From Octopus vulgaris (Eukaryota), in contig OX597835.1 in NCBI GenBank assembly GCA_951406725.2, positions 19,158,001-19,222,000 on the forward strand: a stretch of 64,000 bases of DNA, given 5' to 3'. The first letter of the stretch is position 1. Every line of letters starts with the position of its first letter. This document shows, piece after piece, positions 6,997 to 51,779 of this stretch. Below the pieces are notes generated by a model that searched no databases, was not told the DNA's origin, and saw only the letters and a program-made list of their open reading frames with translations. The translations under genes were made by a program, and so were the position numbers.

Positions 6997-7030
6997 GTAC
7001 TACAGCTGTTTCAGAGCCGTTTATCATTGA
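6997..7030 (-). ncRNA. Degenerate hammerhead-like motif, inverted and upstream of the PLE RT remnant
   Basis: Minus strand reads AUGAUAA-ACGGCUCU-GAAAC-AGCU-GUA-GUAC; the core is mutated. Confidence 0.35.
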
Positions 7031-7199
7031 TGAATAATTCGATTACATTTTGAAGAAATAACTTTTACTTCCCAGGAAATTTTCAAAATTTGATTTTGGG
7101 AAATAAAATCATGATCAGTTAGAAATGTAAAATTCAACCAAAAATCCAACAATTTCTAACACACATTACACATACTGAACTTTTCAAAACATCAACGAA

Positions 7200-8780
7200 C
7201 ATGTTTATTAAAGCAGAAAACAAAAAACAAGAAAAAATATTTATGTAGAAAACAACCAAACAACAACAAATTACTAACCGATAACGTGACTAAAACACAT
7301 GAAAACAAATAAAGAAATATCCAGAAAAATAGAAGACAATATAGAAAAGCTTATGCAAGAAAATCCTTCTTTAATTCCGAAAGACCATAAAATAACTTGA
7401 CGTAAAATGCTGGCTCTAGTATAATAAATCTCACCATATGCGAAATAAGGATTATTAATAAATCCTAATTAGATAATATTATACGACATATCAGAGCATA
7501 CTCAAATCTTACTCAATGGATAATCAGTAATGCAACTATTGAAACGTTTCACAAAATAGATGATAGACCCAAATGCATGTTTATAGAATTCAATATCGTA
7601 GATTTCTACCCCTCGATCTCCAAAAGCTTACTTCAGGGGGCACTTGAATTTAGTAAAATATATGTCACTATAATGCAAGGAAGTCATCACTTTTTTTACG
7701 ATAATTCCTATTGGGTAAAAATAACGAATACTGACGAGATATTTGATGTGGCAATGGGGAGCTATGACGGTCCAAGTATAGCTGACCATGTAGACCTTTA
7801 TATCTTAGATACCCGTAAATAAAGAAATTACAGAATTTAACATAGGTTTATATATGGATGATAATCTAGGAGTAGTATATAATGAAAACGGACATGATAT
7901 GGATAGAATAAAAAAAAAATTGTGCAAAATATTTAGCCAAACGCAATTAATTATGACGGTCCAAATATAGCTGACCATGTAGACCTTTATATCCTAGATA
8001 CTCTTAAAACAAGAAATTAAAGCATTTAACATAGGTTTATATATGGATGATAATCTAGGAGTAGTATATAATGAAAACGGACATGATATTAGTCTTTACT
8101 CTTTTACTCTTTTACTTGTTTCAGTCATTTGACTGCGGCCATGCTGGAGCACCGCCTTTAATCGAGCAACTCAACCCCGGGACTTATTCTTTTGTAAGCC
8201 CAGTACTTATTCTATCGGTCTCTTTTGCCGAACCGCTAAGTGACGGGGACGTAAACACACCAGCATTGGTTGTCAATAAATGCTAGGGGGACAAACACAA
8301 ACACACACACACACACACACACACATATATATACATACATATATACGACAGGCTTCTTTCAGTTTCCGTCTACCAAATCCACTCACAAGGCATTGGTCGG
8401 CCCGGGGCTATAGCAGAAGACACTTGCCCAAGATGCCACGCAGTGGGACTGAACCCGGAACCATGTGGTTGGTTAGCAAGCTACTTACCACACAGCCACT
8501 CCTGCACCTATATGGATAGAAAAAAAGAAAAAAAGTTGTGCAAAATATTTAGCCAATCACAATTAATACAAACCTTAAAGAAGTCAACTTCCTAGACATT
8601 ACCATGAATCTTAACAGGAAAATTTAAACCCTATGAGAGACAAAACAGGAAGTCTCGTACATAGACATAAGTCACAACCATCCACCCACCCGCATCAATT
8701 AAACAAATGAGTAACATTATTAGCAGGCGCGTCTCCAATTTATCCACTGGCAAAGACACTTTAGAAAAAAACTGCCCCAT
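7200..8780 (+). pseudogene. Penelope-like retroelement reverse transcriptase remnant with an internal duplication and a SINE insertion
   Basis: KDHK, FNIVDFYPSI, FDVAMGSYDG, IGLYMDDNLG, NLKEVNFLDI and NHPP motifs in PLE RT order; ~190-bp tandem duplication (about 7762-7950 and 7952-8090). Confidence 0.85.
8093..8508 (-). mobile_element. Full-length SINE family B (tRNA head, CORE-like segment, internal microsatellite, LINE-derived tail ending in GAGTAAAA repeats)
   Basis: Many near-identical copies in the window; inserted within the PLE RT remnant. Confidence 0.92.
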
Positions 8781-8781
8781 G

Positions 8782-9217
8782 GGTGCAGGAGTGGCTGTGT
8801 GGTAAGTAGCTTGTTTACCAACCACATGGTTCCGGGTTCAGTCCCACTGCGTGGCACCTTGGGCAAATGTCTTCTACTATAGCCTCGGGCCGACCAATGT
8901 CTTGTGAGTGGATTTGGTAGACGGAAACTGAAAGAAGCCCGTCGTATATATGTATATTTATATATATATATATATATATATATATATATGTGTGTGTGTG
9001 TGTGTGTGTTTGTGTGTCTGTGTTTGTCCTCCTAGCATTGCTTGACAACCGATGCTGGTGTGTTTATGTCCCCGTTACTTAGCGGTTCGGCAAAAAGAGA
9101 CCGATAGAATGAGTACTGGGCTTACAAAAGAATAAGTCCCGGGGTCGAGTTGCTCGATTGAAAGCGGTGCTCCAGCATGGCCGCAGTCAAATGATTGAAA
9201 CAAGTAAAAAAAGAGTA
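8782..9217 (+). mobile_element. Full-length SINE family B
   Basis: GGTGCAGGAGTGGCTGTGTGGTAAG...GGTTCAGTCCC...TGAAACAAGTAAAA. Confidence 0.92.
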
Positions 9218-9550
9218 TATTATAAGGCCACCCAATAGTAATGTCACTTGATTCATTGATTCATTGTTTTATTTACGTGAATTTACGGAATAACCCCGTG
9301 AACTAAATGAGGCTGTTTTCCAAAATAGAGGCGAACACCTTTCTCCATATGATCGGCTTTATAAATTCTTGTTACTAAGATATTTTCCTACTTTTCTTAA
9401 CACAAAACTAATGGTAAATTTAATTCGCAAATAAAGAAATTATATCCACCAATGCGGTGTTGAGCACTAATTTTCAACGTTTGACATTGCAGTATATATA
9501 TATATATATATATATATATATATATATATATATATATATATATATATATA

Positions 9551-9710
9551 GGTAAAGTTTACGAAAAAAAACGAAGACAGGTGGTGTACAAAACAAACAG
9601 GTGTATTAGTATAACGCTGAGGAATAGCAAAAGTCTTTTACGTTTCGAGCCTACGCTCTTCTACAGAAAGAGACACAGAAAAAACAAGGAGAGAAAAAAA
9701 GGAGAGAATA
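9551..9710 (-). mobile_element. TA-anchored PLE-like terminal module (family H3) with a hammerhead-like motif at 9634-9671
   Basis: Minus strand reads UCUUU-CUGUAGA-A-GAGC-GUAG-GCUC-GAAAC-GUA-AAAGA; homologous to 40665-40870; flanked by (TA)n. Confidence 0.65.
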
Positions 9711-9744
9711 TATATATATATATATATGTATATATATATGCGTA

Positions 9745-49080: not shown

Positions 49081-49302
49081 GTTACATTAAGGAGATAATC
49101 GATTCCAGTAGAGCAACACAACTTTATTGAGCACTAGATTGTTTGGTTTAGCTTGACAGCCAAAAGGATAAAGAAAATGGAGAAGACAGTGGTGTTATAT
49201 GTACTAAGTATTTATAATTCCTCCTGTGTTAATCAACATTTGAATTGAAGAATTTTTGTGTCGCATCTCTTTTATCCTCTTCATAGTAATGATATAGGCT
49301 AC

Positions 49303-49689
49303 TGGAGGCGCAATGGCCCAGTGGTTAGGGCAGCGGACATGCGGTCATAGGATCGCGGTTTCGATTCCCAGACCGGGCGTTGGGAGTGTTTATTGAGCGA
49401 AAACACCTAAAGCTCCACGAGGCTCCGGCAGGGGATGGTGGTGATCCCTGCTGTACTCTTTCACCACAACTTTCTCTCACTCTTACTTCCAGTTTCTGTT
49501 GTACCTGTATTTCCAAGGGGCAGGCCTTGTCACTCTCTGTGTCACGCTGAATATCCCCGAGAACTACGTTAAGTGTACACGTGTCTGTGGAGTGCTCAGC
49601 CACTTACACATAAATTTCTCGAGCAGGCTGTTCCGTTGATTCGGATCAACCGGAACCCTCGTCGTCGTAACCGACGGAGTGCTTCCACC
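49303..49689 (+). mobile_element. Full-length SINE family A
   Basis: TSD ataggctac. Confidence 0.92.
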
Positions 49690-50777
49690 ATAGGCTACTA
49701 GAAAGAATTTGTAAAATATTTTCGTTCAACACAGTTCCAGGCTTGTATTTATTTTATTACGTTGTGAATAATGTTTTTATTTCTCTTTTTACACGTCGTT
49801 CTTCTCAAAGATATCAATTACACAATCATTTAATATGCAGTATTTTAGTATTAGTTTCTCTTACCTTGTCAGTATTATACACAACAAGACAAATAGTTAC
49901 ATAATTAGCAGCTTCTGTACCCGGTACACCTCAACATCTACCTGAATGACTCCATTTCATCTTCGAGAATATTCTACGTTTCCAAATCAATATATCATAT
50001 TGTCAGCCTTATACACCTGATATTAACCCCATGAAGTACACAGAATGCATATCCGATGATTTTATATGACGGTCCAATAACAATATGTAGTAATTCATTT
50101 CCACAGGGCGCCATTTTTTTTTACATCAATTGCAAGAGGGCCAGGAAATAACCTGCTGCATATATATTTGCACAACTACAGCATAGCTTCAGGCTATATG
50201 CTACAAAATATAAATGACGTTTTGCTCTCTGCTATCTGCACGCATTTCACAAACCAGTTATTTAGAACGACAGCGAAATTTCCTGTTGCTGTCTACAAGG
50301 GATCTCCACCTTCTGTGACAACTTTCATTGATATTTCAACGGAATATTTACCTAAAACCTCCAAGAAGGTAAGGAGATAGACAAAGAACATGCTGTCTTC
50401 GCTTCAGTTTTGAAGCTACTAATGCATCAAGAAGAAAGACTTGTTACAGATCTAGCTTGTCACTGTTTTAATTCATAGTCTTGTTTATCACATATTTATC
50501 ACATCTTTTTCCAACAAAATCTAAGGCCAAATATTTGCTGTACAAATATATATAAGCATGTATGAATCTATGTATATATAATTATATATATATATGTATA
50601 TATATATATATATATATATATATATATATATATATATATATATTAAATTAGAGATAAAACCACTATTAAGCAAATCAAACAATGAAAAACTTAAGCCAAT
50701 ACATAAAATTAATTAATTTATATTATTTTAAATATATATCAAAATTATTAAAAGTTTAATAAAAATAATGAGTAAAA

Positions 50778-50846
50778 CACTACGATCGTTTCATGGCTGT
50801 CCAATTCGTAATAATTCGAGTTATGGTTACAGTCAATCTTCAGGTG
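50778..50846 (-). ncRNA. Type I hammerhead with extended stem II and palindromic loop III (ACGAUCGU)
   Basis: CAC-CUGAAGA-UUGACUGU...ACAGCCAU-GAAAC-GAUC-GUA-GUG. Confidence 0.75.
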
Positions 50847-50965
50847 ATTAAAATATCAGACTCTATATGTTTTAATTTAATGTCTTCTTTATCACATATT
50901 TATCACATCTTTTTCTAACAAAATCTAAGGCCAAATATATTGAATATAGAGTCTGATATTTTAAT

Positions 50966-51034
50966 CACCTGAAGATTGACTGTAACCATAACTCGAATTA
51001 TTACGAATTGGACAGCCATGGAACGATCGTAGTG
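50966..51034 (+). ncRNA. Hammerhead copy with a GAAA->GGAA core mutation
   Basis: CAC-CUGAAGA...ACAGCCAU-GGAAC-GAUC-GUA-GUG. Confidence 0.6.
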
Positions 51035-51779
51035 TTTTACTCATTATCTTTTATTAAACTTTTAATAATTTTGATATATATTTAAAATAATATAAATTAA
51101 TTAATTTTATGTATTGGCTTAAGTTTTTCATTGTTTGATTTGCCTAATAGTGGTTTTATCTCTAATTTAATATAATATAATATTTTACTATATAATTGAA
51201 TTCAATCCTAAATCTGATTTTTCCCTGTAAGTTTGGATTTATTCCCTAATATTTTATTATATATATATATGTGTGTATATAATGAAACAGTATATATATA
51301 TATATATGTATATATATATATATATATATATATATATATATATATATATATATATATATATATATATGATTACTACTTTCTGAATACTATCTAAATACTA
51401 TCTGCAAATAAAGATAGAATTGGCTGCAAGAAAAGTGTCTTGTATGCGGTACTATACTCCAAATATCCCGAAATCAAACTCCATCACAAGAGGAATTTTA
51501 AAATGTATGTTTCCTTTACTCATTTAAGATTGTATGATTTTAAAATGTGATACATAAAAGAGACAGAAATAATGAGTTGTGTGATTTGATTTACTGGTTA
51601 TATATGGTATATTCTCTTGTAGTGAACCGCGAATGTTGATTCAGCGAAATAAAACACTAATCATGTCCTTTGGAAACGAATTGATCTCTTGAGGCTGGTG
51701 CCTTGCAAAGCTTTTGGTAAATGGAACAAGTTGAGGACTCAGAATAAATAAATACATACATCCATCCATCCATAAATAT

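Follow-up and report, generated by a model that had tools for sequence, protein, structure and literature searches.

Hammerhead-bearing modules in TA tracts of the Octopus vulgaris genome as probable tips of Penelope-like retrotransposons

Introduction

Minimal hammerhead ribozymes in the ends of Penelope-like elements (PLEs), targeting of TA, tails and head-to-head copies are already published features (Cervera 2014, PMC4209133; Craig 2021, PMC8557442). The Hydra clade of PLEs targets TA and is marked by RWK, DKT, CxCx5C, CxxC and CxH motifs and by the lack of CCHH; a cephalopod family of this clade, Hydra-1_Obim, is listed in the supplement of Craig 2021. Spliced Penelope transcripts have been shown, and selection against intronless elements argued (Schostak 2008, PMC2377424), an antisense template has been proposed for the retention of PLE introns with an unspliced sense template left open (Arkhipova 2013, PMC3846280), and the significance of this retention has been called unknown (Craig 2021). 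For an Anolis PLE in vitro, two internal initiation sites of the reverse transcriptase (RT) bound the tail, and uncut RNA is the main substrate (Frangieh 2024, PMC11167929). Here we analysed a 64-kb stretch of Octopus vulgaris contig OX597835.1 (the window; coordinates are positions in it, with the strand in brackets), in which an earlier note had described several families of tiny hammerhead-bearing modules anchored in TA microsatellites. We are confident that these modules are terminal-repeat tips of at least six PLE families, of Hydra and Neptune types, lying in (TA)n tracts.

Judged by the features tested, the system is that of PLE pseudo-long terminal repeats (pLTRs) with hammerheads (Cervera 2014) and of the TA-targeting Hydra clade (Craig 2021); the core observation is already described in these two papers, and the basic finding is nothing unusual in an animal genome rich in PLEs. 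What we did not find in print is the predominance of spliced-junction copies in two families (H1a and H1b) and families with A3-U8, G3-C8, A6U or U4C cores. The earlier note had recognised neither the spliced copies nor the pairing of tailed with tailless arms nor the variant cores. Why retroelements retain introns is a standing puzzle, which can be tested directly in the genome on these hundreds of copies, exactly spliced and bounded by the start; the copies also predict an exact start site and splice junction. If genuine, the A3-U8, G3-C8 and A6U families would broaden the consensus of natural hammerheads and mean that descriptor searches miss tens of thousands of PLE ribozymes in a single genome. 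The variant-core families also constitute natural mutants for asking whether PLE hammerheads must cut.

The surrounding assembly comprises 2.8 Gb in 227 contigs. The window has a GC content of 34% and is dense in microsatellites and short repeats, and no host gene was seen in its 64 kb. Loci fetched from elsewhere in the same genome carry L-numbers (L106, L414 and so on) and were the best-scoring or first-listed matches.

Results

PLE families and their reading frames

A DNA search of the genome found every module to be a dispersed repeat, with 478–1,780 candidates each for families H1a, H1b, H2, H3 and H4, 913 for the module at 34959 (H5) and 57 for that at 6997 (H6), 40 of which were scored in each case. 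The four module families distinguished earlier had to be revised in that H1 splits in two, H1a (25449) and H1b (50778 and 50966). The modules run on directly into open reading frames (ORFs) with RT and GIY-YIG endonuclease (EN) domains, as expected from the PLE origin and TA targeting that had been proposed; the partners are full-length for H1a and H2 and partial for the others. Of the two element types put forward in the earlier note, 5'-truncated ends of autonomous families fit better, and independent non-autonomous families fit less well.

Locus L106 (H1a) consists of a hammerhead repeat, tail, 822-amino-acid (aa) frame, 3' untranslated region (UTR) and, with TA at its end, another hammerhead repeat; an inverted truncated copy precedes the whole. 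Its last endonuclease motifs lie just beyond a stop, and are included in the 821–852-aa frames of the sister loci L209, L211, L212 and L213. The H2 loci L414 and L415 read repeat, 727-aa frame, repeat. For H1b, endonuclease matches 80–86% identical to H1a lie 1.2–1.9 kb upstream of the intron donor in five loci, and Hydra-type endonuclease fragments lie upstream of H4 tips. Upstream of H3 and H5 tips we found RT-EN sequence with a Cx4CxxC linker, together with a C..C..H..H pattern.

The H1a and H2 proteins contain DKT, CxCx5C, CxxC and CxH and lack CCHH; H2 has RWK, for which H1 has KWK instead, and in H4 the Hydra marks are limited to endonuclease motifs. On these sequence features, the two H1 families, H2 and H4 are assigned as pLTR tips of Hydra-clade PLEs, whereas H3 and H5 are assigned as tips of Neptune-type PLEs by motifs alone, which do not separate Nematis. 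The first group shares with the Hydra clade of Craig 2021 the C-terminal GIY-YIG domain, these motifs and the missing CCHH, insertion into (TA)n and a hammerhead with a longer palindromic stem III, and H2 resembles Hydra-2_Amil in its stem I (CUGU/ACAG) and ACUC-N-GAGU stem III. There are also differences from the elements in that paper. Judged by eye, the H1 and H2 proteins differ from Hydra-1_Obim; H1 elements exceed the <3 kb stated for the clade and contain an Asn-rich insert as well as an intron of 0.9–1.3 kb in the leader; tails measure 70–150 nt as against 30–40; and the Hydra cores in its File S2 all begin with CUGANGA, but subfamilies with CCGA exist in H2 and H4. The H3 and H5 partners resemble Neptune PLEs (Craig 2021) in their Cx2-5CxxC linker before a C-terminal GIY-YIG domain and in microsatellite targeting, and differ in their variant cores.

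In the H1 proteins (L106:6250-6600; L211), a long Asn-rich low-complexity insert lies between RT and endonuclease; such an insert is known in rotifer Penelope elements (Arkhipova 2013). Pfam returned no family for the two full-length Hydra proteins (H1a and H2) or for the RT fragment of L034, and sub-threshold GIY-YIG matches for an H3-linked fragment. A protein homolog search gave 1,761 relatives, and nearly all of the 120 listed were without a name.

Hammerhead sites in the window

The elements of the window are as follows.

6999..7071 (-): H6, decayed copy of an old long-loop hammerhead family, core damaged; relatives 76–86% identical
7391..8687 (+): broken Hydra-type RT remnants found by tblastn, with stops and other repeats inserted
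9551..9708 (-): H3 tip flanked by two TA tracts; core CUGUAGA (A6U) at 9666
10107..10196 (+): H7 hammerhead; core CCGAAGA at 10116, long stem II, palindromic CAUAUG
19635..19950 (both): H2 head-to-head pair, TA at both outer ends
25271..25614 (both): H1a head-to-head pair
25691..25859 (both): damaged H2 head-to-head pair, core incomplete; tail arm minus, short arm plus
33726..34084 (both): H2 pieces
34900..35075 (+): H5 tip, assigned to a Neptune-type PLE; core AUGAUUA at 34963; boundaries approximate
40393..40867 (+): 5'-truncated H3 copy with 3' UTR and hammerhead; core CUGUUGA at 40706, TA tracts on both sides
45937..46047 (-): H4 tip cut inside the core, ending in TA
50643..51257 (both): H1b head-to-head pair

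Hammerhead-derived sequence was present at all 12 of the coordinates listed earlier, although a complete canonical core occurs at just three of them, 19701(-), 25487(-) and 50843(-). Three more sites have a complete core with a variant typical of the family (9666(-), 40706(+) and 34963(+)), and six are damaged or truncated (19814, 50969, 33848, 25800, 46005 and 6997). The site at 34959 had been taken for a remnant, which it is not: its core is the normal core of H5. A broader descriptor revealed a further hammerhead at 10116(+), absent from the earlier list, whose H7 repeat is also present at locus L354. The earlier statement that these elements occur every several kb agrees with the 13 sites in the 64-kb window; genome-wide, the tally of exact-pattern matches, a lower bound, was at least ~25,800 in 2.8 Gb.

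The motifs were more frequent than in shuffled controls. A descriptor of the type I minimal hammerhead matched two sites with a strict core and four with a relaxed core, compared with none in 100 block-wise dinucleotide shuffles, and the broader descriptor matched five, compared with a mean of 0.045 across 200 shuffles. The hammerhead at 50843 was missed by the descriptors because its stem II is mismatched and its loop long. An Rfam scan of the window listed no hammerhead among 150 of its 382 matches, which were dominated by microsatellite miRNA matches.

The relatives of H6 carry CUGAAGA...GAAACAGCUGUA. With the H2 protein as query, tblastn gave E values of 2e-27 at 7391-7961 and 6e-4 at 8556-8687 for the RT remnants, which lie head-to-head with the 6997 remnant and from this position are inferred to be linked to its hammerhead. 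In the H2 pair at 19635..19950, the minus arm (19635-19713) is tailless with an intact core at 19701, and the plus arm (19800-19950) has G8A in the core at 19814 and a tail of ~70 nt. The minus arm of the H1a pair (25271-25495) is tailed, with an intact core at 25487; the tailless plus arm (25494-25614) begins at stem II, downstream of the splice junction described below, so that its splice state is unreadable. The H2 pieces comprise a plus stub (33726-33775), a minus copy from 33814 with a damaged core and ~150 nt of upstream 3' UTR, and an inverted tail piece ending at 34084. The H5 copy at 34963 has stem II GC-GAAA-GC, the palindrome ACCGGU and, at position 17, a G in place of the C of most H5 copies. 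The H4 tip lacks the 5' strand of stem I and core positions 3-5. In the H1b pair, the minus arm is tailless with an intact core at 50843, the plus arm is tailed with GGAAC in its core at 50969, and the sequence upstream in both arms is of a third kind, matching neither the spliced junction nor that of the mapped intron. At its inversion junction (50885-50945), ~55 nt copy the flank at ~50485-50540, outside the element, with one mismatch; this is a templated insertion of local DNA during integration. A CUGACGA at 21108 was rejected as a hammerhead, having no stem I or III; the sequence around it (21050-21290) resembles, by eye, a coding fragment.

Ends and orientation of the copies

As had been noted for the modules of the window, most copies of H1a, H1b, H2, H3 and H4 have (TA)4 or longer within ~30 nt of the 3' end: 90/95, 29/30, 95/107, 23/26 and 13/19, respectively, compared with 9.6% of random 34-nt stretches of the window. 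The count omits 4 H1a copies continuing into the ORF and the copies without a recognisable end motif in the other families (9 H1b, 16 H2, 47 H3 and 17 H4), and takes in 10 H1a copies without a recognised end, scored at a fixed offset.

Copies end at either of two fixed points, short end or tail end, 37–182 nt beyond the predicted cleavage site (93 and 182 nt in H1a, 37 and 108 nt in H2), indicating that the cut does not define the insert. The H4 tail of ~150 nt (e.g. L172 and L423) is several times the 30–40 bp usual for PLE tails. Exactly one arm was tailed in 30 of the 34 complete rows of the table of head-to-head pairs, and two tailed arms never occurred. The table has 35 rows, to which two loci contribute two each: 19 are spliced/spliced, 11 unspliced/unspliced and 2 of a third type, and 3 have one unreadable arm, with no mixed spliced/unspliced pair among the 32 rows in which both arms were readable. 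A joining of arms from two RNAs by the palindrome was considered and found unneeded, given the zero mixed pairs and junctions that are often fold-back palindromes. The pattern of one tailed arm and two end points matches the RT start sites and uncut template of the Anolis PLE, a Poseidon element (Frangieh 2024).

The modules share with non-LTR retrozymes short non-coding units, a type I hammerhead and relatedness to pLTRs (Li 2026 preprint). Retrozymes, however, form head-to-tail tandem arrays, whereas the modules are single or head-to-head and run into coding elements. Only 2 of 464 copies had a same-strand neighbour within 600 bp, which shows that they are not retrozyme arrays, and the retrozyme comparison drawn earlier thus fails; nor was any head-to-tail array of modules found among the 150 of 154 TRF rows listed for the window. 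Thousands of solo and opposite-strand copies per genome are also a feature of the metazoan PLE hammerheads of Cervera 2014.

Intron-free copies of H1a and H1b

Both H1 families possess a GT-AG intron of 0.9–1.3 kb whose end lies immediately 5' of the hammerhead; exactly this intron is absent from many copies. In L106 (H1a), 1,306 nt separate the GT from a downstream AG that abuts the 5' side of the hammerhead, and the H1b intron is mostly 878–905 nt. Exact matches genome-wide numbered 256 for the exon-exon and 44 for the intron-exon junction of H1a, and 174 for the spliced and 102 for the unspliced form of H1b; reversed-pattern controls for these counts gave 0. Several subfamilies with different loop II sequences show the spliced junction. 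No DNA copy examined had a spliced leader running on into the ORF.

Spliced copies in the fetched loci stop near the donor, 48/48 H1a copies within 32 nt and 39/39 H1b copies within 28 nt; since the loci selected by pattern required 14–18 nt of exon, only the upper bound of these values is informative. By contrast, 34 of 35 measured intron-retaining H1a copies extend 40 to >1,500 nt upstream of the donor. The stops of spliced copies adjoin TCACT and TCATT motifs, which we take to be initiator-like. The exact loss of GT-AG introns, together with stops within 32 nt, points to sense, spliced RNA as the template, contrary to the antisense-template idea, and the intron-free junction in the two families likely reflects, as read from the sequence, copying of the element's spliced RNA.

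In Drosophila virilis, the Penelope start likewise lies a few tens of nt before the leader intron, inside the pLTR (Schostak 2008), and the intron ends at helix I (Cervera 2014). Penelope and Poseidon are described as keeping the intron after transposition (PMC2377424, PMC11167929), whereas here hundreds of genomic copies have the spliced junction. We found no report of spliced genomic PLE copies in a literature search that left most subscription papers, Arkhipova 2003 included, outside its range. The words 'hammerhead' and 'Hydra' are absent from the accessible main text of PMC13282606, the repeat library of which may contain these families.

Core variants, stems and folding

Core positions follow the customary hammerhead numbering. 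A descriptor survey of ~1.7 Mb of partly overlapping loci yielded 30 stem I classes, a few of them chance or artefact, with a mostly palindromic loop III although the descriptor did not demand it. Stems I-III differ between families yet remain paired. The octopus motifs resemble the minimal hammerheads of metazoan PLEs (Cervera 2014) in being type I, with stem III short or absent and a palindrome, in an extra nucleotide after A9 and in the occurrence of a U3-A8 variant; they differ in that G10.1-C11.1 is often absent in H1, H2 and H4, and families with A3-U8, G3-C8, A6U or U4C were not found in the accessible text of that paper.

H1a and H1b have canonical cores, H3 and H5 have variant ones, and H2 and H4 are in part canonical and in part variant. 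Core letters were counted by eye, using search patterns with an unconstrained core and taking the first 100 matches listed for each. In H3 (19,995 matches), position 6 was U in 95, A in 3 and C in 2, position 7 was A in 25, U in 41, C in 23 and G in 11, and positions 3, 4, 5, 8 and 9 were constant in 96–100. In H4 (393 matches), position 4 was C in 63, U in 35 and A in 2; part of this U4 may be CpG decay, since 9 show the corresponding decay on the opposite strand. H5 (116 matches) had A3 in 92, U8 in 94, both in 86 and C3-G8 in none, and a related subfamily keeps A3-U8 with a different stem I. In a family outside the window (1,415 matches), G3 was found in 99, C8 in 96 and both in 95. Two U3-A8 families also occur in the genome. 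With all 16 pairs allowed at positions 3 and 8, 250 of 264 matches were Watson-Crick, 11 of these being an artefact of H1b pairs; of the 14 others, 11 were single mutated copies of Watson-Crick families, and one shuffle of the same loci gave 7 matches with this descriptor. Each core variant represents a single evolutionary event or a few, rather than hundreds of them.

Natural A3-U8, G3-C8 or A6U hammerheads were not found in our literature search, which did not extend to Lunse 2017; as the largest survey of such variants in PLEs, that paper may list them. Hammerheads with U3-A8 are known in nature (Cervera 2014), U4C (viroid) and A6C (phage) are natural with low activity (Perreault 2011, PMC3088659), and C3G/G8C is an engineered partial rescue (Frangieh 2024).

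Loop III homoduplexes have energies of -1.7 to -11.1 kcal/mol while the same segments give no hairpin, as expected for dimer-type ribozymes. We predict that the PLE hammerheads of this genome cut only as dimers via the palindromic stem III, and slowly.

The G3-C8 family (L478-L507; e.g. L016:2235-2285) has a 7-bp stem I, an AAUAUU palindrome, a ~55-nt tail and TA ends, and its 5' ends cluster within ~25 nt of stem I. No ORF partner was linked to it in any of 34 loci, and the upstream sequence of L499 matched its own locus alone. Several copies share flanks, so the count of 1,415 is inflated by secondary duplication. This family could be another class of spliced stubs or a true non-autonomous family.

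The two repeat families with U3-A8 cores are represented by L083 (minus, 2600) and by L289/L256/L110, the latter flanking a Neptune-type RT-EN in L110. About 20 further stem I classes were seen in the flanks of fetched loci, some with loop II regions of 40–70 nt. The diversity of PLE families in this genome is well above that of the families studied here.

Discussion

In the mechanism that we propose, the nicking endonuclease and RT of the element likely write tips into (TA)n tracts. Reverse transcription would begin internally at the two end points, on uncut RNA, with hammerhead cutting not setting the insert ends. Unspliced read-through RNA would yield copies, full-length or truncated to varying degrees, in which intron and promoter are preserved, while spliced RNA from the promoter of the repeat, starting ~27–32 nt before the donor, would give dead-end stubs of ~170–330 nt. 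The second arm of a pair would likely be a fold-back or second-primed copy of the same template. Going further on the sequence evidence, we regard it as an even question whether the RT readily copies sense spliced RNA into promoter-less stubs, the unspliced 3' repeat alone founding elements with no antisense template, and whether 3-8 pairs C-G, U-A, A-U and G-C and the A6U family (~20,000) are working ribozymes outside the consensus, invisible to CUGANGA searches.

The modules might instead be independent non-autonomous elements, akin to retrozymes or short interspersed nuclear elements (SINEs), that are re-copied alone using PLE protein in trans. The spliced H1 stubs are end-bounded and outnumber intron-retaining copies, the G3-C8 family has short bounded 5' ends without a linked PLE frame in its 34 loci, and a derivation of retrozymes from pLTRs has been reported (Li 2026 preprint). 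We nevertheless think such independence unlikely, because tandem arrays are missing, with 2 of 464 copies having a near same-strand neighbour, each named family runs into an RT-EN frame at some loci, the stubs have no sequence upstream of the inferred start, and several loop II variants with the spliced junction fit repeated production from full-length masters. The presence of the junction in several subfamily variants also argues against a DNA deletion in a founder copy that was later amplified with no splicing at all. The junction is read in DNA, and one deleted master can seed many copies; however, exactly GT...AG is lost in each of two families whose exons and introns differ in sequence, and 87/87 copies stop within 32 nt of the donor, where a deleted full-length master should reach further upstream, making this explanation quite improbable. 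Least credible, to the point of being negligible, is that the modules are TA-inserting miniature inverted-repeat transposable elements (MITEs) or that the motifs arose by chance in microsatellite DNA rich in AT. A head-to-head pair flanked by TA tracts does have the look of inverted repeats at a TA target, and the window contains many such tracts, but the arms are unequal (one tailed), junctions vary by copy, single arms are common, and shuffled windows contain 0–0.045 motifs. Spliced copies and unequal arms do not suit MITEs, which have equal terminal inverted repeats, a fixed length and no RNA step, and the continuity of the sequence into RT-EN frames refutes this explanation.

A different doubt concerns the ribozyme itself, as the hammerhead fold could serve as a non-cutting signal for RNA dimerisation or protein binding, with variant cores tolerated and catalysis unneeded. 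A6U is near-fixed in H3, U4C is the majority in H4, and U4C and A6 changes lower activity in vitro (Perreault 2011); ribozyme mutants were without effect on insertion in vitro (Frangieh 2024), and the uncut motif is present in inserts. On the other hand, the 3-8 pair, a contact of the active fold, stays Watson-Crick in four forms across families, the free position 7 of H3 shows all four letters next to the near-constant positions 3, 4, 5, 8 and 9, and the Anolis PLE hammerhead cuts with its protein present (Frangieh 2024). We consider a non-cutting fold doubtful, though with a real minority claim.

Several observations weigh against our own reading of the modules as PLE tips that include stubs from spliced RNA. 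Splicing, start site and cleavage are all read from DNA copies, and none of the window's own copies is demonstrably spliced. The fetched loci, being best-scoring or first-listed, over-represent young copies, and among them no intact full-length frame was found for H1b, H3, H4 or H5. In H1a, 5' ends peak at 24 nt, where there is a small palindrome, and the peak may stem from fold-back instead of marking a start site. A GAG start in common had suggested a spliced class for H2 as well, which was ruled out by 51 compared with 3,257 matches and by the lack of any upstream exon common to the 30 loci; this lack weighs against generality, H1a and H1b being the families that show such a class. The predicted folds of monomers are no more stable than those of shuffled sequences (z -1.8 to +0.8), and the loop III duplexes of H3 (-1.7 kcal/mol) and H1a (-2.9 kcal/mol) are weak.

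Further features of the window

A 5S rRNA-like sequence at 43561-43676 (78.7 bits, Rfam scan), directly after a 1.9-kb (ACAT)n array, is probably a 5S-derived retrocopy. A tandem 158-bp duplication lies at 15547-16064, where a frame resembles, by eye, the C-terminus of an RTE-type long interspersed nuclear element. SINE-like repeats of 190–450 bp are abundant and in part tandem (1196-1610, 8081-8511, 22579-23101, 54784-55151 and others).

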